A stretch of 64,000 nucleotides of DNA from an uncultured Acidobacteriaceae bacterium (GTDB lineage Bacteria; Acidobacteriota; Terriglobia; Terriglobales; Acidobacteriaceae): assembly GCA_963774565.1 (NCBI GenBank), contig CAVZFP010000009.1, positions 64,349-128,348 on the forward strand. Reading direction: 5' to 3'. Position numbers and translations under genes: made by a program. The first letter of the stretch is position 1. Every line of letters begins with the position of its first letter. Positions 39,856-61,654 of this stretch are shown in pieces. The notes below the pieces were generated by a model. That model saw nothing but the letters and a program-made list of their open reading frames with translations, searched no databases and was not told the DNA's origin.

Positions 39856-40191
39856 CTACTTTTTCTGCGCTTCGCGGATGTAGGACACGACCATCTTGGT
39901 CTGGTCCGGGGTCACGCCCTTGTTGGCGAATGCGTGCATTGCTTTCTTGTCCTTGCCGCCGGTCGCGATCATGTCGGTCAGATCGGCGTCGGAGGCTTTC
40001 TTGGCATCGTCAGAAACCAGGCTCGGAATCTTGGCAGCCGGTTTCCCTGCGAGGTCCGCACCATGGCAGGCCGCGCATTTTGCTTTGTAGATGGCTGCGC
40101 CGTCATCGGCGGCCCAGGAAAGGTTGGGCAAAACGAGGAACAACGCGACGGCGATCATCGCGATCAGGATTACGAGCTTCGTCATCTTCAT
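39856..40191 (-). CDS. Monohaem class I c-type cytochrome (111 aa), exported
   Basis: Intact ORF with a signal/TM segment (MKMTKLVILIAMIAVALFLVLPNLSWA) and a single CAACH motif. A downstream Met (KKAMHAF) is the candidate sixth ligand. Confidence 0.85.
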   Translation of the reverse strand: MKMTKLVILIAMIAVALFLVLPNLSWAADDGAAIYKAKCAACHGADLAGKPAAKIPSLVSDDAKKASDADLTDMIATGGKDKKAMHAFANKGVTPDQTKMVVSYIREAQKK

Positions 40192-42694: not shown

Positions 42695-44183
42695 TTAGCT
42701 GGATGAGTTTTCGGATGGCACCGAGTCCGTGGCAGGCTCCTCGTCCCCTGCAGGCACGAGTTCGAATTTCTTCAGTTTGTAACGCAAGGCGTCGCGGCTG
42801 ATGTCGAGTAGGCGGGCGGCGTGGGTCTGATTGCCATTGGCTTGTCGCATGGCGAGTTCGACCATGGCGCGCTCCACCTCTTCCAAAGATGTGCCTTCCT
42901 CGGGAATGTAGAGCCGGGGCAGCACGCGGCCATTCGGAAGTTGCTTGCCCGCGCCATCACCCGGCGTGCTGCTGGCCTCAAAGGCCGTCAAGCCGCCGCG
43001 AGCCGCTTCGCCCACCGCGAACGGCATGTAGACCGGCCGCAGAATGAATTCGTCTTCCAGGATCATGGCGCGCTCGATCGAGTTCTTGAGCTCACGCACG
43101 TTTCCAGGCCAGTTGTGAGCGAGCAGTAACCGGCGGGTCTCGCGCGTCGATGCCACGCACGGACTTCTTGAACTTGCGGTTATACCAGTTGATGAAGAAG
43201 TCGACCAGAGGCAGAATATCTTCGGTGCGCTCGCGCAGCGGCGGAATGAAGATAGCGATGATGGCCAGCCGGTAATAGAGATCCTGGCGGAAATGGCCTT
43301 CGCGTACCGCTTTTTCCAGATCGCGATTGGAGGCCGCGATTACGCGCACATCCACCTGCATATCGCGTACGCCTCCTACCCGGCGAATCACTTGGTCTTC
43401 GAGTACGCGCAGCAGTTTGGCTTGCAGCAAGGGAGAGAGTTCGCCGATTTCATCCAGGAATAACGTGCCGCCATTGGCCGTTTCAAACAGGCCCTTCTTC
43501 ATCTGCTTGGCGTCGGTGAAGGCGCCTCGTTCGTGGCCGAAGAGTTCAGCTTCCATCAGAGTCTCGGGAATGGCCGAACAGTTGATGGCGACAAATGGGC
43601 CGTGCTGGCGGGAGCTATCGTAGTGGATCGTTTTGGCGATCAGGTCTTTGCCGGTACCGCTCTCACCTTGAATCAGAATGGTGGTGGCCTCGCTGGCAGC
43701 AACCTTTTGCACGAAGTTCATCAGTTCTGTTGTTTTCGGCGAAACCGCAACGACTTCGTGATAGCCCGTGCTCCGGCGCACTTCCCCGCGCAGAGACTGG
43801 ACTTCGGTGCGCAAGCGGGAAGCTTCCAGCGCATTCTGGATGGTGACGTGTAATTCCTCGAAATCCAGGGGCTTACCGATGAAGTCGTAAGCACCCAGTT
43901 TAAGCGCGGTTTTGACGTCGTCCAGTTGAGGATCGGCCGTAATCATGATCACGGCGGGGGCGTCGGGACTTTTCTTAAGCTGTTCGAGAACTTGTATTCC
44001 GTTCAAATCTGGCAGGCGCACGTCAAGCAGAACCAAGTCGGGAGACTCGTGCTGCGCGAGGCGAAGTCCGGGGTCGCCGGCCGCGGCTTCGACAACCTGG
44101 TATCCCCACTCTTCGCACTTCTGACGCAGCGACCAGCGCACCAGGCGCTCGTCGTCAATCACCAGAATCTTCTCGGCTGGCAT
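42695..44183 (-). CDS. Sigma54-dependent response regulator (NtrC family: REC, AAA+, Fis-type HTH), with one apparent frameshift (~43150)
   Basis: ORF 43092-44183 carries the receiver DLVLLDVRLPDLNG, Walker A GESGTGK, the GAFTDA sigma54-contact loop and VRVIAASN. ORF 42695-43156 carries NWPGNVRELKNSIERA and the HTH AARLLDISRDALRYKLKKF. Confidence 0.9.
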
Positions 44184-45313: not shown

Positions 45314-46579
45314 CTAGGACGAAGAAACTGGCGCAGCCGCCCTATGCAGCGGCAGAATCACGGCAAACGTTGTGCCCTTGCCGACCGCGCTGGTGACGTC
45401 GATGCGGCCTTGGTGATCTTCCACGATGCGGCGGGCTAGCGACAATCCCAGGCCCGTGCCGTCGCCTTTGGTGGTGTAGAAGGGCCGGAAGATGTTGGGC
45501 AGGTGATCGGCCGGGATGCCACGGCCATTGTCGGCCACTTCGACCACGGCGGTGGCTCCAAGGGGCTTTACGGTGACCGTGATTTTGCCGTTCGCGTCGA
45601 TCGCCTGCAGAGCATTCAACAGCAGGTTCAGCAGCACTTGGTGGATCTGATCGCTATCGTGCTCGACTTCCGGCAAGGCGGGATCTTTGTGGAGCGTGAT
45701 GTCGAAGGACTTAGCCAGCGCCTGCTGGCGGCCCAGCATCACGGCATGTTCGACCGTAATATTCAGGTCACTCTTGCGAACCTTGGGAGGATGCGGCCGG
45801 GCAGTCTGCAGGAGATCGGTGACGATGTGATTGATGCGTGCGATTTCCTGGCGGACGTCTTTGACCACGGTGCGCGCCGGGCTGCTTACGGGCAGATCAC
45901 GACCAATAATTTCGATGACGCCGGCAATCCCCGCCAGAGGGTTGCGGATTTCATGGGCCAGTCCTGTCGCCATCTCTCCCAGAGTGGCGAGGTGCTCGGC
46001 GCGCGACATTTGCGTGCGGTGCAGGCGTTCGATCTCAGCCCGGCTTTCGCGGAGCTGCATTACCATCTGATTGAAGTTGCGGCCGAGGTCGCCGATCTCG
46101 TCGTTGCGCCGGGCGAAACTCACGGCCACGGTGAGATCGCCGCCGCCGAGCCGAGCGATCTTCTGCTGCAGTTCGACCATGGGGCGCTGCACCGTGTAGG
46201 TGAGCACAACGAGCAGTGCACCGCAAATTGCGACCGCCCCTGCTCCCGCGACTAACAGAACGATGTGGCGTTCGGGATCGCGCCAGGAGAGCGTGGCCAG
46301 CAAGAACAGCAGCATTCCGCCCAGCAACACGCAGGCAATCGGCACCAGCGCCTTGATCTCCCAGTTGATGCGAAGCCAGGGAAGTTCGGGATCCTCAGGC
46401 TTGGTTCCAGGCGTGGCGGAAGCGTCCGCAACCGGTCCAGTCGAGATAGGATCCGTCAGCAATGCTGCTCCCGAATAGGCTGTACTAAAAAAGCCGGCAC
46501 GCGAGCGAGCAGAGCTGGACGCAGGGACCTCATCAGTCGGAATGTCTGGACTCGTTGGTTTCGTCATGGTCTCAGGCAT
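45314..46579 (-). CDS. Sensor histidine kinase (2 TM, HAMP, HisKA, HATPase_c) with almost no periplasmic loop
   Basis: Intact 421-aa ORF. It has a HAMP-like [20 protein letters not shown], the H-box [12 protein letters not shown], the N-box LLNLLLNA, the G1 motif DNGRGI and the G2 motif GTGLGLS. Its start overlaps the ccsA stop by 8 nt. Confidence 0.9.
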
Positions 46580-47969
46580 ACGCGTGCAGTCCTGGAAGCA
46601 AGTAGGTCACGCCAAAGAAAGTGAACATCACCACCGCGAAGCCCAGGATGGCGAAGTAGGCCGCGCGCCGGCCGCGCCAGCCGCGGGTGATGCGCATGTG
46701 CAGGTAGCCGGCATAGACCAGCCAAGTAATCGCCGCCCACGTCTCCTTGGGGTCCCAATTCCAGTAGGACCCCCAGGCCCGGTTGGCCCAGTAGGCGCCG
46801 GCGGCGATCATCAGGGTGAGCAGGGGGAATGCAATGCAAATTGTTTTGTAGGTAATTCGGTCGAGCGCGTCCGCATCCGGCAACAGGCGTTCCAGATCCT
46901 GGCGTCGCCAGAGCAGCAGAAGATAAAGCAGGTTAGCGAAGATTCCGCCGACCAGTGCGGAAAGAATGAACGGGCTCGCCGCCAGGCTGGTGGCATAGAG
47001 TCCGTCCGCATCGAGCGAGGGATACTGCCCGGAGCGTACTCGCAGCAGGAAAAATACCAGCGCCAGCGATTGCAACAGAATGCTGATGAAGACCGCGCGG
47101 TCGGCGAAGGCCAGCAACCCTTCATTTTTCTGGACTCGTGACAAAATGTAAAGCACGAGCGGCGCCAGCACCGCGGCGAACACCAGAAGCATCAGCCAGC
47201 CAAGGTCTGGAATCGTGACGAACAGCCGCACCCCACGCGAGACGAACACCTCGGCTTTGTTCTCCGCATCCCACGCGACCACGCTGAGCCCGCCCCACTT
47301 TTCGAAGCGCATCAAGACCGCGGCATAGATGCCAACGGTGAACACACTGGTCGCCGCCAGAAAGACCTCTGTCTTCATCTTGTCCTGGATCAGGAACATC
47401 ATGGCGAGCGCGAAGCTCAGGGCGCATGCCGCATATGCCAGCATGGCGAGGGTCACATGCACGTGCAGCCACGTCGATTGCAACGCCGGTACGAGCGGGC
47501 GCACTTCGCTGGGCAGAAGCTGCATCAAGATAACACCCACAATGGCGACCGGCATGGTCACGGTGCCGATGACTTTTACCCCGTAACGTTTCTCGGCGAT
47601 CAGGGTCAGCGCCGCCAGCGTCCACACGAAGCTCAGCAGCATTTCATAGACGCTGGCGAATGGCGGATGCCCCGCTTCATACCAGCGATGGGCCACGGCT
47701 CCAGTGTTGACCAGCAGTCCAGCCCATGTCATGAGCGATGCGAACTTGATGTAGGAATCGGTCCCGGTCACGCCAAAGCCAAGATACAGAGCTCCCGCGC
47801 CAGCGTAGAAAACCAGCGCGGCATACAGCAGGTTGGCCTCACTCAGAAGGCTTCCGCTTTTGATCACATTCAGAAAAGCCATGAACAGCAGGAACGCCAT
47901 TCCCAACCCCACCATCACGATCAGCGTATTGCCGGTCGCGGGATGCTGTTCAACGTTTGCGCGTGCCAT
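46572..47969 (-). CDS. ccsA: Cytochrome c biogenesis protein CcsA/ResC (system II haem-handling subunit)
   Basis: Intact 465-aa polytopic ORF with the Trp-rich WWD-type motif [14 protein letters not shown] and conserved His residues. Confidence 0.9.
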
Positions 47970-47990: not shown

Positions 47991-49457
47991 TCACCTTCCG
48001 GCGATCGATGTTCTGGCGATCGATGTGGCCTGTGCCTGGGCCGAAGCCACGATCTCGGTTTCCAATTCCTTCTGAATCTCTTTCACCACGTTCTTGAACT
48101 TATGTTCGAAGGCGTCGCGGTTACGGTTCGCCGTGCCACCGACCCACAGCGCCGCGCGGCCGCGCGCATCGACTACGGGAACGACCCAGAACCGCATGTG
48201 AACCACGTAGAAAACAAAGGTCAGGCCGATTGCCATCAACACGACGCCAGCCCAAACCGCCCACTGGCCGGGTTCGTGCGAGACCTGCAGTCCGGTGTAG
48301 AGCCCGGTCTTCAAGTCCTTGGGGTCGAAAATGTAGGGGGAGGACGCGTTCTCGTCGACGCCCGGAATGTCGGGCAGCCACACGTTCACGCTGGTGTTCG
48401 CTTTCTTCGAAGTCACGACCAGGTGGACCGCGGGGTTCACGACGTCTCTACTGCGGGCGTAAACCCGGCCGTCCTGCACCACGAAGTCAGGGATGAACTC
48501 CACCAGTTGCACGCTGGTGTCGGCATCGAGGGCGACGGTCTGATTCATGGCCAATGAAATTTCCTGCGGAGTGCGCGTGGCGCCGCGGGCGGGAGTCGCG
48601 TTCAGTATCAGTTGATCGAGCTTGCCAGTGCGGCCATAGCTGGCCTGATAAAAGCGCAGCCCCTGATAAACCAGTGGGTCGTTGACCACAATTTCTTTGC
48701 GCGCGATCTCGCGGCCGCCGTCCACCACGGCAAGCTTCGACCACCAACGCTTGGGAGTGCCGTCGGCGTAGGTCTCTTCGCCGGTGCCATCGCAGCGGAT
48801 GGAGAACGGAATGGTCTGCAGAGAGCCGTTCTTGAGTTCGATCTGGTTGCTTGCGCTTCCCGGCGTCAGCATCAGGAATCCGCGCCATCCGTAGAGCGAG
48901 TCCACAATGAAGCCCAGGAAAATCAGCAGCAGGCTGGCGTGAACGATGTAGACGCCCATCTCGGAAATACGATTGCGCTCCGCGAACAACGAGAAGCTGT
49001 CGGTGCGTACGATCCGTTCGGCTTTCAGTCCCAGGTGGCGGAAGGCGCGCTCGGCTGCGCTCAACGCTTGCTCGTCATCGGCCACTGCAATTAGCGCCTG
49101 CGTCGGCAGAACCTTGCGGAAACTTTCATCAGGACTCTTATAAGGACGGGCGAAGTAGCGCCATGCGTTCGGGAATCGCTGCACCGACGCTGCGATGATG
49201 CTCAAGCTGACCAGAATCATCAGGGCGACGAACCAGCGCGTGTGGAAGATGTCAGTCAGGCCCGTGACATCGAGGAAGCGCAGCATCGCCGGGGAGTAAG
49301 CGCGCTGCATGTCATCGGGGTCGGTGATCGGACGCTGCAAGATGACCGTACCCGCAGCGGAAAGGATGACCACCAGGATAATCAGAACTACGCCCGTCTT
49401 AATGGAACTAAGTGTCTGCCAGATTTTGCGGACCGCGGAGCGAAGTGACTGGGCCAT
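47991..49457 (-). CDS. resB: Cytochrome c biogenesis protein ResB/Ccs1 (system II)
   Basis: Intact 488-aa ORF. It has the N-terminal TM GVVLIILVVILSAAGTV, a large soluble loop and a C-terminal TM pair, and lies immediately upstream of ccsA. Confidence 0.85.
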   Translation of the reverse strand: MAQSLRSAVRKIWQTLSSIKTGVVLIILVVILSAAGTVILQRPITDPDDMQRAYSPAMLRFLDVTGLTDIFHTRWFVALMILVSLSIIAASVQRFPNAWRYFARPYKSPDESFRKVLPTQALIAVADDEQALSAAERAFRHLGLKAERIVRTDSFSLFAERNRISEMGVYIVHASLLLIFLGFIVDSLYGWRGFLMLTPGSASNQIELKNGSLQTIPFSIRCDGTGEETYADGTPKRWWSKLAVVDGGREIARKEIVVNDPLVYQGLRFYQASYGRTGKLDQLILNATPARGATRTPQEISLAMNQTVALDADTSVQLVEFIPDFVVQDGRVYARSRDVVNPAVHLVVTSKKANTSVNVWLPDIPGVDENASSPYIFDPKDLKTGLYTGLQVSHEPGQWAVWAGVVLMAIGLTFVFYVVHMRFWVVPVVDARGRAALWVGGTANRNRDAFEHKFKNVVKEIQKELETEIVASAQAQATSIARTSIAGR

Positions 49458-49828: not shown

Positions 49829-51370
49829 ATGTTCGTGCAAAAGCTAAGGTACATGGTCCCAGAGGTCCAAAATCGCAAGGCTTCGGTAACCGGGCGGAAA
49901 CTGCAAACAGCCCTCCCTAAATTTGTATGGCTGTGCGGCTTCGTCCTCGCGATCGCGATCTCGCCGGCTGTAGCGAAAACCCACCCGGTCCCACTCGACA
50001 AGAATGTGGATGCGGCGAAATGCATCGAGTGCCATGAGGACAAGACCAAAGGCAAGGCGGTTCACTCGGCCATCGCTACCGGATGCCTGAGCTGCCATGA
50101 AGTCCGGGTCAATAACGACGTCACACGCGTCAAGCTGACGGCGACCACTCCTTACAAGCTTTGCCTCACTTGTCACACCGAGAAGGACGCCAGCCAGATT
50201 AAGGGCACGATCCACAAGCCTGCAGTTCGTGATTGCCTGACCTGCCACGATCCACATGCCACCGATTTCAAGAACCAACTGTTGAAAGCGACGTCTGGCG
50301 AGAAGAAAGACAATCTCTGCCTCACGTGCCATAACCAGGGCGAGAATGTTCCCGCGAAGGGCAGCCGTCACGCCGCGCTCGACATGGGCTGCGACACCTG
50401 CCACACGACGCACAAGACTGGCCCCGAAGCCACTGTGCAGAATCAGTTCCACCTGACCAAGGCGACGCCGGCCCTTTGCATTGACTGCCACGACGTGAAG
50501 GACGCAGCACTGCAGAAGGCGCATCAGAATCAGCCCTTCGGTACCGCGAACTGCGTAAGCTGCCACGATCCTCACCAGTCTGCAGCGCCCAAGCTGATGG
50601 CGAAGTTCACTCATCCGCCCTTCGCCGACAAGAGCTGCGACACGTGTCATGCTGCGGCGAAAGACGGCAAAGTTGTGCTGACGCAAGCCAGCGCCAAAGA
50701 ACTCTGCGTCACCTGCCACTCCGATCAAGCCGAGCAGATCGCGAAGGCGAAAGTGCAACATCCCGGAGCGGCTGGAGATTGCACCGACTGCCACAATCCG
50801 CACGCCGGTAACACTCCAGGTTTTGTGCAACCCACACCGGTGGCCGCGTGCCTGAACTGCCACAGCGATCAGGCGGAACTGCAGAAGAACCCGCACCTGC
50901 ACCAGCCGGCTTTCCAGCAGGGATGCGCTACCTGTCACGAGCCTCACGGCGGCGACAACCAGCACCTGTTGCGTACCGCCAATGTGAATTCGCTCTGTCT
51001 CGAGTGCCACGGCCCGGATCGGGACCCCGGCAAACTGGAGAACGATCATCTGCTCACTATTTTCGAGGGCAAGGTGAAGCTGCCGGAAGACTACTTCAAG
51101 ACGAAGCGCCCGCCGGTGTTGCCGCTGCAGTATGGACTGGGGCATCCGACCGAGCGCCACCCGATTTCCGATGTTACGAACCCGACCACCAAGGCCGTCA
51201 CTGCGATGAATTGCTTGACTTGCCACCAGCCGCATGCGGGCGCCGACAACGGCATGCTGGTGAAGGACCAGGCGCCCAACATGCAATTCTGCCGCACCTG
51301 CCACAGCAATCCGATGGATCTGAAATCGGTCGGCGGCGGCAACGAAACAAAGGGCGGAGAGAAACGATAA
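49829..51370 (+). CDS. Multihaem c-type cytochrome with 16 CxxCH motifs (c7-like repeat architecture), exported
   Basis: Intact 513-aa ORF. An in-frame GTG at 49835 is better spaced from the aggag RBS. It has the signal peptide KFVWLCGFVLAIAISPAVA. I counted 16 CxxCH motifs, from CIECH to CRTCH. Confidence 0.9.
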   Translation: MFVQKLRYMVPEVQNRKASVTGRKLQTALPKFVWLCGFVLAIAISPAVAKTHPVPLDKNVDAAKCIECHEDKTKGKAVHSAIATGCLSCHEVRVNNDVTRVKLTATTPYKLCLTCHTEKDASQIKGTIHKPAVRDCLTCHDPHATDFKNQLLKATSGEKKDNLCLTCHNQGENVPAKGSRHAALDMGCDTCHTTHKTGPEATVQNQFHLTKATPALCIDCHDVKDAALQKAHQNQPFGTANCVSCHDPHQSAAPKLMAKFTHPPFADKSCDTCHAAAKDGKVVLTQASAKELCVTCHSDQAEQIAKAKVQHPGAAGDCTDCHNPHAGNTPGFVQPTPVAACLNCHSDQAELQKNPHLHQPAFQQGCATCHEPHGGDNQHLLRTANVNSLCLECHGPDRDPGKLENDHLLTIFEGKVKLPEDYFKTKRPPVLPLQYGLGHPTERHPISDVTNPTTKAVTAMNCLTCHQPHAGADNGMLVKDQAPNMQFCRTCHSNPMDLKSVGGGNETKGGEKR

Positions 51371-52659
51371 TGTCTGCACACCGCAAATCAAACTGCACCC
51401 GCAAGCTTTGGACTCTGATTCTGTTCGCTCTGGCGCTCGCCTCCGCGGTGCCGGCCCATGCGGACAAGAAGAAGTCTGCTCCGGCCACGGGAAACGTCAA
51501 GCTCGGCGATCAGCGCAGCAAGGCATATTTCGATCTCAGCAAGATCGTGTGGCCGAATCCTCCGGCGATCGCGCGGATTAAGTTTGTCGATCTGTTTACC
51601 GGACAGAAAGTCGATCCTAATCTGTTCTCCAAGAAGAACCAGAAGACGAAACAAAAATGGATGGACCGCCTGGCGGGCGACCAACAGACGGAAGAAATCA
51701 AAATCAAGGATCTGCCTTTCCAGTTAATCCGGACTTACGGAGTAGCGGTCGATTCCAAGGGCCTGATTTACGCTGCGGACCAAGGCGTGAGCGCGATCTT
51801 CATCTTCAACACCGAGACCAAGGCGGTCGAGCTGATTGCCAACGGAAAACAGGTGCATTTCGGCGCAGTGAGCGGCATGGCCCTAGATGACAACGATCGC
51901 CTGTTTGTGACTGACGTCGGTCTGCGCCGTGTTGACGTATTCAAGCCGGGAACGCACGAGTTGGAGACCGTTTTCGGTGGCGACGTCCTCGCCAAGCCCG
52001 CCAGTATCGCCATCGATACCGAGAACCGGTTTATCTATGTCGTTGACACGCAGAACGACGTGGTGGACGTGTTCGATGCCGACAGCTTCAAGCTGCTGCG
52101 GAAGATCGGCACGCCGAGCAAGAAGCACACGCTGACCGCCCCGGGAACTTTCTCCCTGCCGATGGGCGTCGCGGTTGACAAAGACGGCAATGTTTACGTC
52201 ACCGACACTTTCAACGACCGCATAGAGATCTTCGACGCCGACGGCGGTTTTATCAGCATGTTCGGCAAGAACGGCGATGGGCCCCAGGATTTTGAGCGGC
52301 CCAAGGGAATCGCGGTCGATGGCGATGGCCACATCTGGGTTGCGGATTCCGCTCAGGACCGGATCAAGGTTTTCGATAAAGACGGCCGCTTGCTGATTTA
52401 TTTCGGTGAGCACGGCGAATATCCCGGTCGCTTCATGGGCGTTTATGACATAGCGATTGACAAGAACAATCGGGTCTTCACTTCCGAAATGTTTCCCGGT
52501 CGCGTGCAGATGTTCCGTTACATCACCGACGAGGAAGCCGCTGCGGAAAAGAAGCGGCGCGAGGATGAGTCCGAACAGAAGCATCCCGCCGCTCCGGCAC
52601 AGAAGCCGGTCAGCGAAGCGGTGCAGAGTAACGCGGCAAAAGATTCTGCGGCGAAGTAA
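51370..52659 (+). CDS. NHL-repeat six-bladed beta-propeller protein, exported (429 aa)
   Basis: The ATG at 51370 overlaps the cytochrome stop as TAATG. It has the signal peptide KLWTLILFALALASAVPAHA and repeated NHL units (P.GIAVD..G.IYV.D....RI.VFD). The N-terminal 174 aa of ORF-track entry 50848-52659 is an out-of-frame overlap and is not part of the gene. Confidence 0.85.
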   Translation: MSAHRKSNCTRKLWTLILFALALASAVPAHADKKKSAPATGNVKLGDQRSKAYFDLSKIVWPNPPAIARIKFVDLFTGQKVDPNLFSKKNQKTKQKWMDRLAGDQQTEEIKIKDLPFQLIRTYGVAVDSKGLIYAADQGVSAIFIFNTETKAVELIANGKQVHFGAVSGMALDDNDRLFVTDVGLRRVDVFKPGTHELETVFGGDVLAKPASIAIDTENRFIYVVDTQNDVVDVFDADSFKLLRKIGTPSKKHTLTAPGTFSLPMGVAVDKDGNVYVTDTFNDRIEIFDADGGFISMFGKNGDGPQDFERPKGIAVDGDGHIWVADSAQDRIKVFDKDGRLLIYFGEHGEYPGRFMGVYDIAIDKNNRVFTSEMFPGRVQMFRYITDEEAAAEKKRREDESEQKHPAAPAQKPVSEAVQSNAAKDSAAK

Positions 52660-52845
52660 GGCAGTCTGAAGGAGCTTGCGATGAAAAGCGAAGCGAACAA
52701 CCGGTTGCAACGAGCCGCAACAAGTTCTCGGCAGTCCATGGCTGCCGAAGAACAAGCGTCGGGCAAAAGCCCGGCTCTTGGATCCAGACGTACTTGTACA
52801 GCTTTATTTGTGTTGCAGCACAATCCTAAGGAGGTTTCGAAACTT

Positions 52846-53734
52846 ATGAAGAAAGCGATGTTAGTTCTCTTGGTAGTATGCGGCGTCGCTGCTATGGCGA
52901 TGGCGCAAGCTGGGACCATCAGCAATACGACAGACGTCCTCGGCGCCCACCTCGGCTACGGCCGTGGCTGCGTCATGTGCCACGCTCCGCACAGCGGTCC
53001 TGCCGGTAACGGCAAGACCGTCAGCGATTCTCAAGCTGGCAAGTTTGCTTTGTGGGGCCAGGATCTTACCCCGCTGTACGGCGCAAACCTTGACGTTCAG
53101 CGGCGACGGCAAGGCCACCTACGCTGTCACACTGCCGGCGCAGGGCACGATCACCAGCGCCCATGACGCCAACACCATCATCCTGTTCTGCCTGAGCTGC
53201 CATGATGGCAACGTTGCCCCGGCTACTCACATGACGGGAACGACGGTTGAGACCCTGCCAGTCGTCGGCGGCAACGCTCCCACTTTCCTGGGCAAGGACG
53301 GAACGGGCGCAACCAACCCGTATCAGAACGACCACCCGGTGGGCGGCGCAGCAATCGTCAGCTGCGGCGGACAATACAACTGGGATTGCACTGGTGGCAA
53401 TACGGTTGGAATCACGATGGCTGGCGCTACTCACGGCGGACAGTTCCTGACGAACTACGGTGGCTCGTTCTGGAACACTGGCACCGTCAACGCGACCAAC
53501 GTCAAGCTGGCCACCTTCGGCACAGTCGTGACCGCAGTGACCTGCACCACCTGCCACGATCAGCACAGCATGACCGTGTTCACCAACAACGTCGGCAGCT
53601 TTGCCACGAGCTTCTTTGTTCGCGGCAACTACATGCCACAAACCGGCGGCAACAACGCGGCGCAGTTCTGCCGCAACTGCCACGGCGGCGAGTCGAACGA
53701 ATTGCACAACGTGAATGGCGTTCCGACCACCTAG
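52846..53734 (+). CDS. Small exported tetrahaem c-type cytochrome (~296 aa, Gly/Thr/Asn-rich), with one apparent 1-nt frameshift (~53087)
   Basis: The RBS aaggagg (52828-52834) precedes the ATG at 52846. The signal peptide is MKKAMLVLLVVCGVAAMAMA. ORF 52681-53166 joins ORF 52964-53734 at ...LYGAN|LTFSGDGKATY... The four CxxCH motifs are CVMCH, CLSCH, CTTCH and CRNCH. Confidence 0.8.
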
Positions 53735-53753
53735 GCTGTGTTGTTTTGAACCC

Positions 53754-53784
53754 TGGGGGAGGGAAGTTCCTCCCCCAATTTCTT
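53754..53784 (+). terminator. Strong hairpin (attenuator or partial terminator) directly after the tetrahaem gene
   Basis: tgggggagg-gaagtt-cctccccca is a 9-bp GC-rich stem, followed by aTTTcTT. It lies 12 nt before the PPIase ATG. Confidence 0.55.
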
Positions 53785-53795
53785 GGAGAAAGATC

Positions 53796-54815
53796 ATGAA
53801 GTGCCAGCTCTTAATTTCGATCGTGTTCTTGGCGGCCATCAGCCCGGCTTGGGCGCAGCTTGTCAGTTCGCACGCTTCCACCCTGCCCACGCAGCCCGCG
53901 GCCAGCGCCATGGAAGCAGCCAGCAAGCCTGTGGCGCGAGTAAATGGAGCGGTCCTGACAGACCGTGACCTGATACGCGAGGAGTACACGATTTTCCCTT
54001 ACGCGCGCCAGCATAACGGCGTCCCGAAAGGGATGGAAGCAGATATCCGTGCCGGCGCCATGAAGATGATTGTCTTTGAAGAACTGGTTTACCAGGAAGC
54101 GGAACGCCGGAAGCTGACCGTGCCACCCTCCCGTTTTCGTCAGGCCGAGGTCGCCTTCCGCAAGCAGTTCACGAATCCGCAGGAATATCAGGAGTTGCTC
54201 AACACCGAGTTCAAGGGTTCCAAGGCGCTGCTCGATTCCAAGATCCAGCGCTCGCTGCTGATCGAAACCATGTTGAAACAGGAAGTGGAGGACAAAGCCT
54301 ACATTCCCATGGCCCAAGCCCGCACTTTCTATGACAAGAACCCAGAGCGGTTCCGCGTTCCGGAGTCGTTTGCGATGCAAACGATTTCGATCATTCCGCC
54401 CAACAACGCGAGCCCGGAACAGGTGAAGGAAGCGCGCAAAAAAGCGGACAACGCTCTGCGCCAGGCCAAGCTGACCAAGAGCTACGACGACTTTGGCCTG
54501 CTGGCCGAAAAGCTTTCCGAGGACGACTACCGGGTCATGATGGGCGATCACAAGGCGGTTGACAAGGCCAAGCTGCCGCCGCAGGTGTTGCAGGCGGTAT
54601 CGAGCATGCAACCCCAGCAAATGAGCGGCCTTATCGACATCGGGAATAACGGGTACACGATTGCGCGGCTGAACGAGCACGTCCCCGAAGGCAAGCGGAC
54701 CTTTGAACAGGTGAAGGACAGCATTCGCGAGTACCTGAAGAAGCAAAAGACGGAAGAACTGCGCAGCGCGCTGGATAAGCGGCTGCGGAAGAACGCGAAG
54801 GTAGAGGAGCTCTAA
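53796..54815 (+). CDS. SurA-N / PpiC-type (parvulin) peptidyl-prolyl isomerase, exported
   Basis: ATG at 53796 within ORF 53715-54815. It has the signal peptide MKCQLLISIVFLAAISPAWA, a SurA-like chaperone N-domain (VARVNGAVLTDRDL...) and a parvulin-like region (FAMQTISIIPP...). Confidence 0.75.
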   Translation: MKCQLLISIVFLAAISPAWAQLVSSHASTLPTQPAASAMEAASKPVARVNGAVLTDRDLIREEYTIFPYARQHNGVPKGMEADIRAGAMKMIVFEELVYQEAERRKLTVPPSRFRQAEVAFRKQFTNPQEYQELLNTEFKGSKALLDSKIQRSLLIETMLKQEVEDKAYIPMAQARTFYDKNPERFRVPESFAMQTISIIPPNNASPEQVKEARKKADNALRQAKLTKSYDDFGLLAEKLSEDDYRVMMGDHKAVDKAKLPPQVLQAVSSMQPQQMSGLIDIGNNGYTIARLNEHVPEGKRTFEQVKDSIREYLKKQKTEELRSALDKRLRKNAKVEEL

Positions 54816-54817
54816 TC

Positions 54818-56665
54818 GTGAAGACTGTCGTCAAACGCGGGATTCTGGTGGCCAACCTGATTATGCTGATGGCCACGTTGCCCGCGTGGGCGCAGGTTGA
54901 GGTCGGCGAGAATACCAGAATGAACCTGAGTGGTAATCTCTCCTTCGGATACACCGCTGATTACTCCAACCTGTTGCCATCCGACCATGGCATGACCCCT
55001 GGCGGCAATGCCGATCTGAGCGGGTATTATTACAACCCGAACTTCCTCTCATTTGACGTGCAGCCCTTCTATAACCAGTCCAGAGATAATTCTCAGTATC
55101 AATCCGTATTTCAATCCGGAGGAGTGAGCGGCAACGCATCCATCTTCTCCGGCAGCCACTTTCCCGGAACGGTGAACTACAGTAGGGTCTACAACAACGA
55201 AGGCGGGATCACCCTGCCCGGCGTGGGTAGCCTGGTTACCCGCGGGAAGAGCGATAATCTTGGCCTGGGTTGGGGAATTCATATTCCCGGTTACCCCAAC
55301 GTTCAATTCCAATTTGCCGACGGCGGGAGCAACAGTTCAGTGTTTGGGACCAGTGCAAACAGCACATACCGCTCTAAACTGTTCGGGGTGGCTGTATCGG
55401 ACCGATGGGCCGGCTTCGACCTCAGCGGCGATTATCACCGCAACAACATTCACTCCCTCACACCTGACTTTCTTGCGGGCGAAGGTCCCGTGGCTTCGGC
55501 AGGCTCATCCAATTCCTACGACTTTACCCTTGGGCATAAATTGCCGTTCAATGGTGCGTTTTCGGCTGCGGCCGGCAGGTCCGATGTCAGTTCTGAATCG
55601 AGTGGCGAGCAGTTTAACGGAACCATCGATACGGTCGGTTCCGGCGTAAGCTTCGAGCCTATCGCCAATCTGAATCTGGGCGTCACCGAGCAGTACACCA
55701 ACAATCTGGAAGGGTCGATTTACCAGTCGGTGTTTTCTGGGGGAGTAGTGCCGTCGTCATTGCTTGACTATTCGACCCACTCGCTCGACATCAACGGACA
55801 CGCCAACTACACCGTGCCATCGATTCATCTGACGTTTGGGGCCATTGCAGACCGTCGCCAGCAGGAAATATTTGGGGTTTCACTGTCGGCTGACATGTTT
55901 AGTGAATCGGTGATCTACGGAGCCGATTTGCTGGGCGGCTATTTCAATGCCAGCGCGGCTGTGACCCAAACCCAGATCATGGGCGTAAACGGGGGGGCGC
56001 ACTCCCTGGGGCAGTTCGAAACCGTCTCCTACTCGCGTAAGTACCAGAATTGGACCCTGAACAGCTCGTTCAACTACTCACACAATACGCAGACCGTTCT
56101 GATTGGTTACACGGCTTCCGGGTACGGATATTCAGCCGGAATTGGGCGCAGAATTGGGGCCTATTCGTTTTGGAGTGTGAACGCCGTCGAGACGAAATCA
56201 AAATTCAGCAACTCCTCGGGATCGGAAAACCTAAGTCAAAGCTATTCGACCTCTCTCACCTTGAAGCGGTTTAGCATGAGCGGGAGTTATGCGAAGGCCG
56301 ACGGCAATTCGCTGCTTACGCCAACGGGCCTGACGCCAGTGACAACTCCCATCCCAGTTTTGACCCCGGCGCAGGAGATTGTGTTTGGCGGAAAATCCTA
56401 CTCTTTCGGCGCCTCGACCACTCCGCTACATGGGCTCGTCCTGTCGGGCTCTTACTCTTCGACAAAGAGCAACACGACAGCGAGTTATGCCACTTCCCAG
56501 AACACGACTGCACAGTTGAATACGATGCTACAGTACAAGGTAAGGCAGTTGTGGATCACGGGCGGCTATTTGAGGCTGCAACAGGGGTTTAGCATTACTG
56601 GCCAGCCCGCCGCTTCGTATTCGTCGTTCTTCATGGGGATTACGCGGTGGTTCAAATTCTTCTGA
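54818..56665 (+). CDS. Predicted outer-membrane beta-barrel protein of unknown family (615 aa)
   Basis: Intact ORF with a GTG start 2 nt after the PPIase stop. It has the signal peptide ...LIMLMATLPAWAQ and long runs of alternating hydrophobic/polar residues rich in Gly/Ser/Tyr/Asn. The C-terminus ...GITRWFKFF has a terminal aromatic residue, typical of BAM substrates. Confidence 0.65.
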   Translation: MKTVVKRGILVANLIMLMATLPAWAQVEVGENTRMNLSGNLSFGYTADYSNLLPSDHGMTPGGNADLSGYYYNPNFLSFDVQPFYNQSRDNSQYQSVFQSGGVSGNASIFSGSHFPGTVNYSRVYNNEGGITLPGVGSLVTRGKSDNLGLGWGIHIPGYPNVQFQFADGGSNSSVFGTSANSTYRSKLFGVAVSDRWAGFDLSGDYHRNNIHSLTPDFLAGEGPVASAGSSNSYDFTLGHKLPFNGAFSAAAGRSDVSSESSGEQFNGTIDTVGSGVSFEPIANLNLGVTEQYTNNLEGSIYQSVFSGGVVPSSLLDYSTHSLDINGHANYTVPSIHLTFGAIADRRQQEIFGVSLSADMFSESVIYGADLLGGYFNASAAVTQTQIMGVNGGAHSLGQFETVSYSRKYQNWTLNSSFNYSHNTQTVLIGYTASGYGYSAGIGRRIGAYSFWSVNAVETKSKFSNSSGSENLSQSYSTSLTLKRFSMSGSYAKADGNSLLTPTGLTPVTTPIPVLTPAQEIVFGGKSYSFGASTTPLHGLVLSGSYSSTKSNTTASYATSQNTTAQLNTMLQYKVRQLWITGGYLRLQQGFSITGQPAASYSSFFMGITRWFKFF

Positions 56666-57751
56666 AATCGGTTTTCGGTGAGACGTGCTGGAAGCGAGCA
56701 CTGGTTTGCGCCATGGCGCTGCTGCTGGCTCCGGTGCCGGGAGCAATCGGGAAGACCTCCAAGACGCAGCCCGTAGAAGTTCCCGAGTTGCTGCTGGAGG
56801 GTGGACGGCGGCTCACCTTTGAGCGCAGTTTCTGGTCTGAGCCCGAAGTGAAGATTAAGCGCGGCTTCTGGACCAAACTCATCGACATCGTGGCGGGCGC
56901 TCCCGACTTTCATGTCCTGATCAGTCCCTACGAAGTCGTGGAGGATTCCCGCGGCCGCATCATCGTGACCGATCCGGGAGCGGCCGGAATCCACATCTTC
57001 GACTTTGGACAGCAGAAGTACAAATTCATCTCGCGCGACCGAGATGACAACAACGGGCTGGTCACACCGCAGTGCGTCGCCGTGGATGCCGAAGACAACA
57101 TCTATGTGACCGATTCGGAGTCCGGCAAGATCTTCGTCTTCGAGCCCGGCGGAAAATTTCAGCGGACGATCGGCAGCCTGAAAGGCGGCGAAGGATATTT
57201 CAAGCGTCCGACTGGAATCGCCGTCGATTCCGCGGCGCAGCGCATTTACGTCACCGACACACTGCGCAACCAGATTTTCGTTCTCGACATGCAGGGCGAC
57301 GTGCTGCAGACCATTGGCAAAAACGGGGATCGGCAACGTCGAGTTCAACTATCCCACCGAGTTGCGCCTGTCGGGCAATCATCTGATCGTGGTCGATGCG
57401 ATGAACTTCCGCGTGCAGGTGCTGGACCGCTCGGGAAACTTCCTCTACGCCATCGGGCGCATTGGCGAAGGGCAGGGGCAGATGTTCCGGCCGAAGGGGA
57501 TCGGCGTGGATTCGGAAGGGCATCTGTACGTGGTGGAAGCGGTGCGCGGGTTAGTGCAGGTTTTCGACCAGGCGGGAAACCTTCTTTACTACTTCGGAGC
57601 GAAGGGGAGCGGCTTTGGAGAATTCCAGTTGCCCACCGGCTTGTGGATTGATCATAACGACCGTGTTCTGATTGTCGACTCGTATAACCGGCGAGTCCAA
57701 GTGTTTCATTATTTCGGGCTGGCAAAACAAACCGCGGGAGGTCAGCCTTGA
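56647..57751 (+). CDS. Second NHL-repeat beta-propeller protein, with one apparent frameshift (~57330)
   Basis: ORF 56647-57651 (...GRIIVTDPGAAGIHIFD...PQCVAVDAEDNIYVTDSESGKIFVFE...PTGIAVDSAAQRIYVTDTLRNQIFVLD) continues in ORF 57314-57751 (...NHLIVVDAMNFRVQVLD...PKGIGVDSEGHLYVVEAVRGLVQVFD...). Confidence 0.8.
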
Positions 57752-59776
57752 GATCGAGGCTTATTGCGGCGGCCGTCGTGTCGGTGCTGGCGAGTGAGAT
57801 GGCATTCGCGCAGATCTATACGGACGTGCTTGGAGCGCATAATATGTCGCCCGCCAGCGGATCTCCAATTACCGGGAATCTCGGCAGCCCGTGCCTGTAC
57901 TGCCACGCGCCACACTCGGGGATCGAAGGTACGGGCGGTGTGAGCGGAACTCCGCTGTGGAGTCAAAAACTATCAAGCGTGCAGTCGTACCAGACATATA
58001 CCAGCATCACGATGGTGAATAAAACCAATGCATCCCCACCGCTGGGGTCGAATAGCACGCTTTGCCTGAGTTGCCACGATGGCACGGTGGCACTGGGAAC
58101 GCTCACTCCCTATGGTCAGGTATCGATGTCGGGAACTCTCGCCGGGACGGCTGCGGATCTGGGAACGAATCTGCAGTCGACGCATCCATTTAACTTTGTT
58201 ACGCCGCTGCAACCGGCTCCCGACATATGGCCGTCGTTGGGCGCCAGTCCCCCTTCGACCCAAGATACGACGGGTGTAGTGCGGCTCATCAATGGCAATG
58301 TGGAGTGCGGAAGTTGTCACAATCCGCATGTGCAGAACATCGATTCCAGCTCTGATTTCCTGGTGATTGATAACTCGCAAAGTGCGCTCTGCTTGGCCTG
58401 CCACAACACGGTTCCGAGCGGAACTGGGATGGGACTGGCAGCGAGTGTGGCTCGTCCCGCTACAGCGGCCGGCGTAACGTCGAATTCAACTTCAAAGACA
58501 GCCTCGGTGAACCCGCTTGCACGATGGCGGGAGAGCATCCATGCCACCGCGACCAACCGGGTTGCGAGCCAGATTTCGCCCGAGGCGGTCGGGCTTGTCT
58601 CCAAGCGAATGACTCGCGTCGGTGCCCTTGGACCCTACACCAACCTGCGCAAGAACGGGTGTTTATCCTGCCACGCGACACACAACTCGTCCACGAAGGT
58701 CTTGCTGCGAGCACTGGACGATCAGACCTGCATCGTCTGTCACAGCGGCGGCACTTCTGTGTCGCCTCCGGCTCCGAACATCGCCGCCGAGATGGCGTCG
58801 CCGAAAATCAGCCACGTGATCGCCGGCGGCTGCGAAAAACAGTTCGCACTCGGCGCGCGAGAGCGAGTTGCTGAATCACAATCGCCATGCCGCTTGCGTG
58901 GATTGCCACAATCCCCATGCCACGAAACAGGTCGGCTTGAGTTTTCCCGCGCCTCCGCTAATACGTCCGTCGCAGGAGGGGGTGAGTGGCATCAGCGCCA
59001 CCGACGGCCGCAGTATTGTCTCTCCCGCCACGAATCAATACGAGAACTGCCTGCGCTGCCATGGAACGAGTGCGGGCAAATCAGAGAACGTGGCGGTGTT
59101 TGGGTATCTGCCCAACCGGTTGGTCTCGGGGCCGGATCCTTGGAACGTGATCCCGCAATTCGGGTTGACATCCACGTCAAGCCATCCCGTGATACATGAT
59201 CGTCGCAGTCCATTTCCGCAGCCCAGTCTTCGCTCGAACATGCTTGATCTGGACGGAGTCCGGCAAGGGCGCACCCTGGGCGTGCGTATCTTGTGCACGG
59301 ACTGCCACAACAGCGACGACAACCGGGAATTCGGCGGAACTGGACCGAATGGACCTCACGGCTCGAAGTATTCCCACATCCTGGAACGTCGCTACGATAT
59401 GAGCCAAGCGCCGGTGCCGGGCCAGCCCATTACGAATTTGATCGTACCGCCCAATCTGACTGCGACGGGCAACTTCGCGCTTTGCGCGAAGTGCCATGAC
59501 TTAGCAACCATTGTCAGCAATTCCAGCTTTAGTGAGCATGCTCGCCACATCAACGATGGGTTTTCCTGCTCGGTGTGTCACACTTCGCATGGAATGGGAT
59601 CACAAATGGCTACTGTATCCGGCGAGCGCATGGTGAATTTCGATCTCAACGTCGTTGCCCCCAACGGCAGGAGCCCAATTACGTACCGGAAATCGACGAA
59701 TTCGTGCAGCCTGACCTGCCATGGGCACGCTCATGGGTCCGCTGGAACGGGCGAACCGGTGAGACTGCGGCCGTAA
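57748..59776 (+). CDS. Exported multihaem c-type cytochrome with 11 CxxCH motifs plus one CxxxCH, with one apparent frameshift (~58840)
   Basis: The TTG start overlaps the NHL stop as TTGA. The signal peptide is MRSRLIAAAVVSVLASEMAFA. ORF 57748-59199 carries CLYCH, CLSCH, CGSCH, CLACH, CLSCH and CIVCH. ORF 58868-59776 carries CVDCH, CLRCH, CTDCH, CAKCH and CSVCH, and also CSLTCH. Confidence 0.8.
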
Positions 59777-59927: not shown

Positions 59928-61349
59928 CTATTTCTCTTTTCGATAGCAGTACAGCGTATCGCTGCGGTTCGGGTCGCGGGCGATGAGTAGCATGGTGTCA
60001 AGGGCACTGGCCAATCCGGATGGGACGGTGTCGGGAAACTTGTCGTTGGACAGCAGATATCCACCTGGCTTTAGCATGGTTGCAATATTGGCGCGGGCCA
60101 GCGACTGCTCGAAAGCGTCGTAGTAGATGAAGATGTTGGTCCCGATAATCAGATCGAAGCCCTGCTGCGGATCGAGAGGCAGGCGCTGGTAGACGATGTT
60201 CATGTCCAGCGGCGTGAGGCGGCGCACGATGCCGGGGCGAATCTTCACCGCCCGCGTTTGCGTCTCTGCCGCGGCACTGGGCACAGCGATGGGCGGCACC
60301 GGTTCGCCGATTTGATCCCCCAGCTTCTGCCAGTATTCGACGAAGCTCCTGCGATATTCCTCTGTCTGCCGCGCTGCGGTGTTCCAGGGAAGCTGCACCG
60401 TGTACGAGCGTCCGGCAACAGCCTTCTCCTTCGCCCGCGCCACGTGGAAGTTCACTTCAGAACTGATGTCGAGGGTATAGAGGTCGACCGTGTCCGGGGT
60501 CGCGACTCCCAGGCGAATGAGCGAGTCCAGCACGGCAAAGGGCTGGATCGTCTGCGGAGGATAGAAGTCATTGCCTTTTTCCTTGTTGGCGAAGTCGAGC
60601 CCCGGACCGACGATGGCGATTCTCTGCACGCTTCCAGGCTTGAGCAGGCCTTTCTCCACCATGCGGTGGAAATGCTGATCGAGCAGGAAGTCCGGCCACA
60701 GATTCGTGTCGAGCGAGATGCCGCGATCTTTAAAAAGCTGCGAACGGGTTTCTTCGCTGGCTGAGGCGCGGTAGCGCAGAATGTCGTCCCGCATGCGGGC
60801 CAGGTTGTCGAGCAGGTATCTCTTGATCCGGGCACGGTCCTCCTGCGTTTTGAATGAGAAGCCCTTTTTCTTGAGGAAAGCGCGCATCCGCGCCATGCCA
60901 TCGCTGGCGTTTGGCGTCCAAGTCTCAGGCGCGGACAGCGAACGGATCAGATCGTTTGCCCGGTTCTCGGCGAAGGAATCGACCAGGGAGCTCTTGCCGA
61001 AACGCAGCAGGTAGTCATCGTCGATCCGGTACTCCTTGGTGAAAGTGACGCCGAAGCGCAGCAGGTTCGTGAGCGTGTCTTCTTCCCCGGAGTTGAGGCG
61101 TTCGCGGACTTCGCGGTCCGATTGTTGCACCCAGGCGGACCATTTCGCGGCGTCCAGGTTGGACGTTGGTTTCAGTTCCGCAGGAAGGGAATCGGAAAAT
61201 GCAGCCACCACCGGTTGCGCCGCTTTGAACGAGATGAATTCGCTCTTCGTCGCTTGCTGAGGCGCCGCGAACCCCAACGACGCGCCAAACATCAATTCAC
61301 AGCCAATGGAGACGAGGATGCCCCACCGAAATCTGTCGTTCGCAATCAT
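59928..61349 (-). CDS. Class I SAM-dependent methyltransferase-fold protein with an N-terminal signal or anchor segment
   Basis: ORF 59928-61391, with the likely start at MIANDRFRWGILVSIGCELMFGASLGFAAPQ. The Rossmann motif I-like segment is RIAIVGPGLD. Later motifs are DLIIGTNIFIYYD and LKPGGYLL. Confidence 0.6.
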   Translation of the reverse strand: MIANDRFRWGILVSIGCELMFGASLGFAAPQQATKSEFISFKAAQPVVAAFSDSLPAELKPTSNLDAAKWSAWVQQSDREVRERLNSGEEDTLTNLLRFGVTFTKEYRIDDDYLLRFGKSSLVDSFAENRANDLIRSLSAPETWTPNASDGMARMRAFLKKKGFSFKTQEDRARIKRYLLDNLARMRDDILRYRASASEETRSQLFKDRGISLDTNLWPDFLLDQHFHRMVEKGLLKPGSVQRIAIVGPGLDFANKEKGNDFYPPQTIQPFAVLDSLIRLGVATPDTVDLYTLDISSEVNFHVARAKEKAVAGRSYTVQLPWNTAARQTEEYRRSFVEYWQKLGDQIGEPVPPIAVPSAAAETQTRAVKIRPGIVRRLTPLDMNIVYQRLPLDPQQGFDLIIGTNIFIYYDAFEQSLARANIATMLKPGGYLLSNDKFPDTVPSGLASALDTMLLIARDPNRSDTLYCYRKEK

Positions 61350-61654
61350 AGTCACGCCCCTTGCCGGAGGCGACCGCATTCCGATGACCAAAGATGATGA
61401 GAGGCGCGGTTAATCTGTGTCAATTGTCTGTCTTTGTTTCTTGGAGTTAGTCAGTCGGGAAGAAGACGGATCGCGAGTCCGGGGCAAAACCCATCGCCGA
61501 GCACTCCCGGTGCGCTTTTTCTCGCAACGAGGGTGTCTTTTGGCGCGAGTTGTTCCCGCTTTTTCGGCTCGTCGCTTCTGACCAGGCGCACAAAATCAAA
61601 CACTTAGCCGCGATGCGTGCTGTGGAACCGAGAATGCTTCTTGCTTCTTTGGAA

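Follow-up and report, generated by a model that had tools for sequence, protein, structure and literature searches.

Does a bacterium of the phylum Acidobacteriota carry the genes for a cytochrome filament of the OmcE type? The question is raised by a seven-gene operon in a 64,000-nucleotide stretch of DNA from an uncultured Acidobacteriaceae bacterium of soil or peat (contig CAVZFP010000009.1, positions 64,349 to 128,348), the whole of which is referred to here as the window. The operon has the gene order cyt16-NHL1-cyt4-PPIase-barrel-NHL2-cytL and encodes two large multiheme cytochromes (cyt16 and cytL), a tetraheme cytochrome (cyt4), two NHL beta-propellers, a SurA-like peptidyl-prolyl isomerase (PPIase), and an outer-membrane beta-barrel (Table 1). 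An initial annotation of the window had likened it to the OmcS and OmcE nanowire loci of Geobacter. The locus is very probably an OmcE-family gene cluster, and the operon is a strong candidate for extracellular electron transfer (EET), as the acidobacterial counterpart of the omcE nanowire cluster of Geobacter and Desulfuromonas.

Sequence comparison shows that the tetraheme protein is homologous to OmcE over its whole length and keeps the four CxxCH motifs as well as the four distal histidines. When cyt4 and cytL were each searched singly against the PDB with phmmer, nothing useful was returned, and OmcE was reached only by a family profile. This profile, made from 47 diverse members of the cyt4 family and searched against the PDB, matched 9yuq_N, a "putative multiheme cytochrome c" (E 1.4e-13), and 7tfs_A, the OmcE filament of Geobacter sulfurreducens (E 1.5e-6). 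Entry 9yuq, with 16 chains and the OmcE-type N terminus KHDLSS...CVFCHTPH, is probably the OmcE bundle of Desulfuromonas soudanensis. The OmcE sequence was mostly recovered from the 7tfs alignment, its family was collected, and 20 members were aligned. When compared by hhalign, the cyt4 and OmcE families matched over their full length (columns 2 to 233 of 234) with a probability of 99.4% (E 4e-21).

The two families are alike in having four heme motifs and four more histidines that serve as heme ligands. In the 47 cyt4 sequences, H35, C42xxC45H46, H49, C115xxC118H119, H163, C233xxC236H237, H240, and C275xxC278H279 are invariant, and the eight ligand histidines of cyt4 map one-to-one on H31, H55, H58, H107, H149, H205, H208, and H230 of OmcE. 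Elements common to both families are an N-terminal histidine, CxxCHxPH, LW, C[LM]SCHDG, DHP, CxSCHxxH, and a terminal CxxCH. The phmmer searches of the PDB, a set that includes the OmcS entry 6ef8, gave no similarity to OmcS for either cyt4 or cytL; the resemblance first proposed thus holds for OmcE and not for OmcS. Homologues of cyt4 are widespread, with 4449 found intact in a large protein collection (up to 89% identity, approximately 290 amino acids, all annotated "hypothetical") and 320 family representatives at 50% clustering. Those with a named source come from Terriglobales, "Ca. Sulfotelmatobacter", "Ca. Solibacter", and Bryobacteraceae.

The PDB search with the cyt4 profile also gave marginal matches to NrfA (E 0.04 to 0.06), and weak, sub-threshold Pfam matches point to NrfB-like, NapC/NirT, and c554 families, as would be seen if the operon encoded a strictly periplasmic respiratory module, namely, a nitrite, sulfite, or hydroxylamine-type multiheme reductase with its accessories. 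Such a module is extremely improbable here: the operon encodes a 28-strand outer-membrane barrel next to an OmcE homologue, no catalytic-type motif is present, and the orthologue of the large cytochrome is predicted to be extracellular in the passages covered of a recent preprint (Fiorito et al., bioRxiv 10.64898/2026.05.27.727921). This candidate was rejected because the NrfA, Hao, and MccA reductase families all fall below the Pfam threshold and all 31 motifs are CxxCH.

A second OmcE-like sequence lies within the operon. The cyt4 family aligned by hhalign with residues 6 to 220 of cytL, which cover the whole family, including its four heme motifs (probability of 99.1%, E 5.7e-19), and the four distal histidines are kept in this OmcE-like module. 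The module spans roughly residues 22 to 220, and beyond it cytL continues for approximately 455 residues with 7 to 8 more hemes. When the module was sought in both cytochromes of the fetched Geobacter cluster, only matches at the level of the heme motifs were obtained. A candidate filament-end protein has been reported to be absent from the OmcE operons examined in the literature, and we infer that cytL could be such a candidate.

The comparison extends from the subunit to its gene neighborhood. The fetched omcE locus of G. sulfurreducens contains purHDE, a c7 cytochrome, ResB, CcsB, cytochromes of 370 and 330 amino acids, an NHL protein of 361 amino acids, OmcE, a 752-amino-acid protein without a Pfam family, and glycosyltransferases. 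A minimal omcE cluster has been described as two multiheme cytochromes, two beta-propeller lipoproteins, OmcE, and a large beta-barrel, located beside resB/ccsB, and OmcE homologues have been listed in five phyla, Acidobacteriota not being among them (Petersen et al., bioRxiv 10.1101/2025.10.22.684050). The window holds two multiheme cytochromes (cyt16 and cytL), a large barrel, and adjoining ResB and CcsA, the likeness of the barrel being one of kind and not of sequence. With the cluster of Desulfuromonadia (G. sulfurreducens GSU0613-0619 and D. soudanensis) it shares the homologous tetraheme subunit with its heme motifs and ligand histidines, homologous NHL propellers, Paired_CXXCH cytochromes upstream, a barrel without a Pfam family downstream of the subunit, adjacent maturation genes (resB/ccsB in that cluster), and a terminator-type hairpin directly 3' of the subunit gene.

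NHL1 is 27% identical to the propeller of the Geobacter omcE locus (E 1e-35), and the intact orthologue of NHL2 in a related locus (L001, described below) reaches 36% identity over 292 residues, full length (E 2e-51). Cyt16 is similar to two cytochromes of the Geobacter locus (E 4e-24 and 6e-20), with scores that are inflated by the repeated heme motifs. The window differs from the omcE cluster in its phylum; in a subunit that is approximately 65 residues longer, with the N-terminal histidine nearer to heme motif 1; in one 16-heme cytochrome in place of two smaller ones; in a SurA-like PPIase between the subunit and barrel genes; in a barrel of 615 rather than 752 amino acids; in the OmcE-like module fused within cytL, which the fetched Geobacter cytochromes lack; and in the lack of a glycosyltransferase block. 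The initial annotation had credited the Geobacter loci with the same accessory set, and this is correct for the NHL proteins, the multiheme cytochromes, and the barrel, whereas the omcE locus of Geobacter encodes no such PPIase.

The 615-amino-acid protein matched no Pfam family, and its assignment as a barrel, which the first reading had made conditional on outer-membrane prediction, is supported by its predicted structure. The AlphaFold2 (AF2) model, made with 28 homologues, is all-beta, with 28 long antiparallel strands in addition to the helix of the signal peptide, and has a predicted local distance difference test (pLDDT) score of 69.5. Its top Foldseek match is MtrB of the Shewanella MtrCAB complex (6r2q_B, E 5e-10, TM score 0.50), followed by TonB-dependent receptors, LptD, and pilus ushers. 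It is the fastest-evolving product of the operon (median identity of 40%), with 296 homologues detected, of which the named ones all belong to Terriglobia. Residues 282 to 398 of cyt16 match MtrA of the same complex (6r2q_A, E 4e-16). The PPIase, for its part, has SurA as its best solved relatives (E 8e-5).

These likenesses bear on a different reading of the same proteins, in which they would form an Mtr-like conduit without a filament: cyt16 would sit inside the barrel, cytL would be a surface reductase on an NHL scaffold, and the tetraheme protein would be a soluble, monomeric shuttle, either periplasmic or extracellular. The best structural match of the barrel and the MtrA-like segment of cyt16 come from one solved complex, a SurA-like PPIase suits barrel biogenesis, and multimer modeling in the preprint favors membrane-spanning Mtr-like complexes (Fiorito et al., in the passages covered). 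The surface cytochrome of such a conduit, cytL, would nevertheless itself bear an OmcE module, and OmcE, to which cyt4 is homologous over its full length, is known only as a filament subunit; cyt4 has exactly eight ligand histidines for four hemes. The gene set is like that of omcE clusters and not of mtrCAB. Compared with MtrCAB (PDB 6R2Q), the barrel has approximately 28 strands instead of 26 and 10% sequence identity, and the window encodes NHL propellers, a PPIase, and OmcE-like proteins and lacks an MtrC/OmcA-family cytochrome: none is found above the Pfam cutoff, the score of cyt16 for Mtrc-MtrF_II-IV_dom (53.7 versus 30 bits) arising through repetitive heme motifs, with cyt4 and cytL below it. 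A conduit without a filament is unlikely on this evidence, if a serious contender, and it is compatible with the OmcE-type reading, as a conduit could feed a filament.

The seven same-strand genes are joined by TAATG at 51368-51372 (cyt16/NHL1), TAA-tc-GTG at 54813-54820 (PPIase/barrel), an overlap in which the GTG start of NHL2 at 56647 lies 19 nucleotides before the end of the barrel gene (TGA at 56663-56665), and TTGA at 57748-57751 (NHL2/cytL). The sole two intergenic gaps, at 52660-52845 and 53735-53795, both flank cyt4. All of these junctions and gaps are exactly as first annotated, and the domain identities are borne out by Pfam, which recognizes Paired_CXXCH multiheme cytochromes, NHL/DUF5128 propellers, and SurA_N plus a PpiC rotamase, the barrel being the product without a family. 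Signal-peptide-like N termini were read by eye on all seven products.

A GC-rich, terminator-like hairpin with a 10-bp stem begins 20 nucleotides past the cyt4 stop codon and has a T-rich tail. In 73 of 81 loci a GC-rich hairpin (a stem of 8 bp or more, 6 or more of them G-C) starts no more than 30 nucleotides past the stop, and several stem positions have a G-C pair in some loci and an A-T pair in others. In 58 loci the core GGGGGAGGG-loop-CCCTCCCCC lies at this same position, in many cases with a T-rich tail (e.g., L004:10892-10911). It is found once in the 64-kb window, where 0.02 occurrences are expected, and once per locus, and the hairpin is absent after the lone cyt4 paralogues of L046, L054, and L056 to L058. 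The gap between omcE and the gene of the 752-amino-acid barrel in Geobacter holds a canonical terminator hairpin, AAAAAGGGUGGAC-UCCG-GUCCACCCUUUUUUU (L002:10713-10746), which a simple terminator scan missed and folding revealed. Hairpins past the gene of the major subunit are typical of fimbrial operons. By analogy, the hairpin fits high expression of the tetraheme protein relative to the machinery. The 186-nucleotide leader of cyt4 contains two further, adjacent hairpins, for which RNAalifold on eight close relatives gave 24 pairs, 4 of them with compensatory changes, and which have no Rfam match. The first of these is bordered by a T-run and an A-run; the second has a 12-bp stem and a four-base loop that is GCAA in most relatives and AAAA in the window.

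Three of the seven genes change frame internally: cyt4 near 53085 (53085-53087), NHL2 near 57325 (57320-57328, in the run AAAAACGGGG), and cytL near 58831. Removal of one base per site yields proteins of 295 (cyt4), 368 (NHL2), and 675 (cytL) amino acids. After frame repair, cyt16, cyt4, and cytL contain 16, 4, and 11 CxxCH motifs, 31 in all, plus one CxxxCH; the original count of 31 motifs in seven genes therefore stands only after this repair, and the frameshifts in three genes had been overlooked. The interruption of three of seven genes could mean that the operon is decaying in this organism, the frameshifts being real and the locus a set of pseudogenes. Several other genes of the window are broken in the same way, however, with Pfam domains that continue in another frame. 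They encode essential or unrelated proteins: the sigma54 activator, a NuoL/M/N-type subunit, NuoC, and a molybdopterin oxidoreductase.

The relatives speak to the same point. In an uncultured Acidobacteriaceae metagenome-assembled genome (MAG; loci L001/L004), all seven genes are intact (500, 430, 320, 342, 615, 364, and 669 amino acids) and have the same flanks, and the window proteins are 74 to 87% identical in amino acids to those of L001. Compared with this intact relative, the window has a single extra base at each break in cyt4, NHL2, and the sigma54 activator; the cytL region is too divergent to resolve. Two of the breaks lie in homopolymer runs. No stop-codon substitutions or deletions are seen in the otherwise conserved sequence. 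Many relatives come from bins labeled "MFD", which we take to be long-read assemblies. Because unrelated genes are broken likewise and relatives are intact, the frameshifts are, on the sequence evidence, most likely assembly indels and not gene decay, which is very improbable. This points to an indel-prone assembly of the window, in which gene calls need frameshift tolerance. In L001, CcsA is called as two genes (153 and 321 amino acids, L001:3832-5230), where the window CcsA is intact with 465 amino acids; indel errors are probable in that MAG, too.

At least 545 relatives turned up when species-representative genomes were scanned, and the best 80 loci were fetched. The scan used a narrower alignment than the profile did, as the diverse alignment had no stretch that was conserved enough. 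Nearly all of these 80 loci come from Terriglobia MAGs of peat, bog, and soil. As counted by tblastn of the window proteins over the 80 loci, 53 have all seven genes in the order seen in the window, 10 have the five-gene block cyt4-PPIase-barrel-NHL2-cytL, and 5 have a lone cyt4 paralogue; the other 12, a number that is the remainder of these three counts, are partial, mostly at contig ends. The acidobacterial origin that had been assumed for the window is confirmed by the names of the relatives (Acidobacteriaceae, "Ca. Sulfotelmatobacter", Bryobacterales, and others), and the synteny with other Acidobacteriota that had been suggested as a check is borne out by a gene order kept across Terriglobia.

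Variants of the arrangement were also observed. In L029, L064, L071, L073, L078, L079, and L081, the five-gene block is preceded by a TPR gene and not by cyt16-NHL1; in L079, the cyt16-NHL1 pair lies downstream of the block. The operon seems to be made of two modules. Copies with 45 to 51% identity in L048, L061, L065, and L082 belong to MAGs labeled Patescibacteria group, "Ca. Cybelea", "Ca. Binatia", and Verrucomicrobiia, and these are either misbinned acidobacterial contigs or horizontal transfers. The stand-alone cyt4-like copies in L046, L054, L056, L057, and L058 (Bryobacterales/Bryobacteraceae MAGs), around which the rest of the operon is absent within 10 kb, are possibly paralogues with another role or alternative subunits.

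Part of this operon has almost certainly been described before. In the passages covered of the preprint by Fiorito et al. (bioRxiv 10.64898/2026.05.27.727921), a Porin-NHL-CytC cluster named EET1 is reported from 49 MAGs of Terriglobales/UBA7540 and is transcribed in deep peat. Its components are an MtrB-like porin (6R2Q, TM score 0.48), an NHL/DUF5128 scaffold, and a 13-heme OmcE-like cytochrome that is predicted to be extracellular and whose AlphaFold 3 model matches 7TFS (TM score 0.70). The four clusters of that preprint are treated there as Mtr-like conduits, with multimer modeling in support of membrane-spanning complexes, and the supplement sees a likeness between the large cytochrome and OmcE nanowires, with a proposed role in electron transport over long distances. 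The order barrel-NHL2-cytL, the affiliation with Terriglobales, and the Foldseek score of the porin (0.48 versus 0.50 here) agree, so far as that text describes them, the match being by description and not by sequences. The EET1 core is almost certainly barrel-NHL2-cytL of this operon, and cytL almost certainly corresponds to the "13-heme OmcE-like MHC" (multiheme cytochrome) of that cluster.

Within the passages covered, the main text of that preprint does not use the word "nanowire," text and supplements name no PPIase or SurA, and "tetraheme" appears only for a verrucomicrobial cluster; a separate tetraheme OmcE homologue, the upstream pair of 16-heme cytochrome and NHL protein, and the hairpin past the subunit gene are not mentioned there. 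Relative to the literature text covered, three features appear to be new: the cluster is a complete one of the omcE type and has an OmcE orthologue of its own, it encodes a cytochrome with a fused OmcE module, and its subunit gene is followed by a terminator-type hairpin. The locus had been called essentially uncharacterized at the outset. This is true experimentally, but overstated otherwise, as omcE clusters outside Desulfuromonadia and the three-gene core are found in preprints of 2025 and 2026.

The omcS-companion (osc) cluster of G. sulfurreducens (Shen et al. 2025, Cell Chem Biol) is also similar in its accessory logic. As far as its description was covered, the genes around its filament subunit gene encode the prolyl-isomerase chaperone OscH, the channel-like outer-membrane components OscEFG, the propeller-like OscD, and large cytochromes of the periplasm; the window likewise encodes a PPIase, a barrel, and propellers. 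Compared with this description, the window lacks an OmcS-like hexaheme protein and has a single barrel, not OscEFG.

On balance, the operon is probably of the OmcE type and devoted to EET, with a tetraheme subunit that probably polymerizes and is fed via a barrel-associated multiheme cytochrome. Filament formation by the subunit, as suggested by homology, is more tentative and close to evenly balanced. Several observations weigh against an OmcE-type filament operon. The N-terminal histidine is 7 residues before the first heme motif in cyt4 versus 20 in OmcE, and therefore the geometry of ligation between subunits may differ from that of OmcE. The AF2 apo model of a cyt4 homologue (P0002) has a pLDDT of 63, and its Foldseek search against the PDB gave noise only, a poor result of the kind expected for a coil-rich heme protein that is modeled without its hemes. 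Neither BLASTP nor hhalign detects sequence similarity between the barrel and the 752-amino-acid barrel of the Geobacter omcE locus. No obvious lipobox was seen by eye on the N termini of NHL1 and NHL2, and the propellers of Desulfuromonadia are described as lipoproteins. A hairpin after a gene suits any abundantly expressed product, not just a filament subunit, and the copy of the operon in the window bears three frameshifts.

In the favored OmcE-type reading, electrons would leave the periplasm through the 16-heme cytochrome, which may thread the MtrB-like barrel of approximately 28 strands. Outside the cell they would reach cytL, whose OmcE-like module may dock on, nucleate, or cap the tetraheme polymer, and the polymer would pass them to acceptors that are insoluble or macromolecular, for example, humic or particulate organic matter or Fe(III). 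The SurA-like PPIase may chaperone the barrel and/or the coil-rich cytochromes, and the NHL propellers could serve as assembly scaffolds. The hairpin and the two gaps flanking cyt4 would allow an excess of subunit over machinery, as with pilin genes, and the adjacent kinase and sigma54 regulator would probably govern expression. The most far-reaching version holds that Terriglobia build OmcE-type nanowires, that cytL, as a dedicated filament-end protein, nucleates, anchors, or tips the polymer and couples it electrically to an MtrAB-like conduit of cyt16 and the barrel, and that the hairpin sets the ratio of subunit to machinery; taken as a whole, this version is speculative and somewhat unlikely.

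The neighboring genes are those reported initially, with ResB, CcsA, the kinase, the sigma54 regulator, HemA, TPR proteins, and the monoheme cytochrome all present (Table 1). ResB lies no more than 10 kb away in 21 of the 80 related loci, an adjacency that is also seen at the Geobacter omcE locus, and many loci of the Acidobacteriaceae and Sulfotelmatobacter types have the kinase as a neighbor of ResB/CcsA. The sigma54 regulator adjoins the operon in the relative L001 too, and this regulator and the histidine kinase probably control the locus. A search with the sigma54 −24/−12 consensus found no site upstream of the operon or in its internal gaps, with matches below chance, and no sigma70 promoter was picked up on the coding strand. 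The 64-kb window had no match in scans for Rfam families and tRNAs.

Convergent to the operon lies a gene for a 487-amino-acid protein that matches no Pfam family, shows methyltransferase-like motifs by eye (VGPGLDF, DLIIGTNIFIYYD), and recurs near the operon in L001, L017, L028, L040 to L043, and L047. Farther away, a Ser/Thr protein kinase of 776 amino acids is fused to TPR repeats. The remaining window is of housekeeping character, with nuo genes, an S15 peptidase, an amino-acid permease, beta-lactamase-fold proteins, a phosphate-selective porin, and a radical SAM protein.

Table 1. Features of the operon and its surroundings (window coordinates)
Feature	Position	Strand	Description	Basis or remark
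Seven-gene operon	49829-59776	+	cyt16 to cytL
cyt16	49829-51370	+	Exported cytochrome, 513 amino acids, 16 CxxCH; proposed electron wire in the periplasm or across the outer membrane	Pfam Paired_CXXCH_1 x8
NHL1	51370-52659	+	Six-bladed NHL beta-propeller, 429 amino acids, signal peptide	Pfam
Leader hairpins of cyt4	52725-52751, 52753-52780	+	Two adjacent conserved hairpins	RNAalifold
cyt4	52846-53734	+	Tetraheme OmcE homologue, 295 amino acids, candidate filament subunit	4 CxxCH after repair
Hairpin	53754-53777	+	GC-rich, terminator-like, TGGGGGAGGG-AAGT-TCCTCCCCCA, then ATTTCTT	3' of cyt4
PPIase	53796-54815	+	SurA-like periplasmic PPIase/chaperone, 339 amino acids (SurA_N and one PpiC rotamase)	Pfam
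Barrel	54818-56665	+	Outer-membrane beta-barrel, 615 amino acids, ~28 strands, signal peptide, C-terminal ...WFKFF	AF2 model
NHL2	56647-57751	+	NHL beta-propeller, 368 amino acids	Pfam; one-base frameshift
cytL	57748-59776	+	Cytochrome, 675 amino acids, 11 CxxCH and 1 CxxxCH	One-base frameshift; frame-repaired
ResB/CcsB	47991-49457	-	System II cytochrome c maturation	Pfam PF05140; divergent from operon
CcsA	46572-47969	-	System II cytochrome c maturation	Pfam PF01578
Histidine kinase	45314-46579	-	HAMP/HisKA/HATPase sensor	Pfam
Sigma54 regulator	42695-44183	-	Sigma54-dependent response regulator (receiver, AAA+, Fis HTH)	Frameshift near 43120; Pfam AAA_lid_14 split over two open reading frames
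Monoheme cytochrome c	39856-40191	-		Flank
HemA (GluTR)	Flank			Pfam
TPR proteins	Flanks		On either side of operon	Pfam
487-amino-acid protein	59928-61391	-
Ser/Thr kinase-TPR	26641-28971	-
NuoL/M/N-type subunit	1100-2096	-	Proton_antipo_M	Frameshift-type break
NuoC	8590-9366	-	Complex1_30kDa, truncated	Frameshift-type break
Molybdopterin-binding oxidoreductase	11236-13564	-		Frameshift-type break

Terriglobia are among the most abundant bacteria of acidic soils and peat. The operon bears on the balance of anaerobic carbon oxidation in these habitats without inorganic electron acceptors, and it is a defined gene set for reconstitution, consisting of the subunit, the cytochrome with a fused OmcE module, the barrel, the chaperone, and two propellers. 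If these proteins are true OmcE homologues, long-range electron transfer by cytochrome filaments may extend past the classical metal reducers. Should the most far-reaching version, with its nanowires coupled to a conduit, be true, the operon would be a compact and complete genetic system for the start, anchoring, and charging of cytochrome nanowires, and it would provide a molecular route for the respiration of humic and particulate organic matter in peat.

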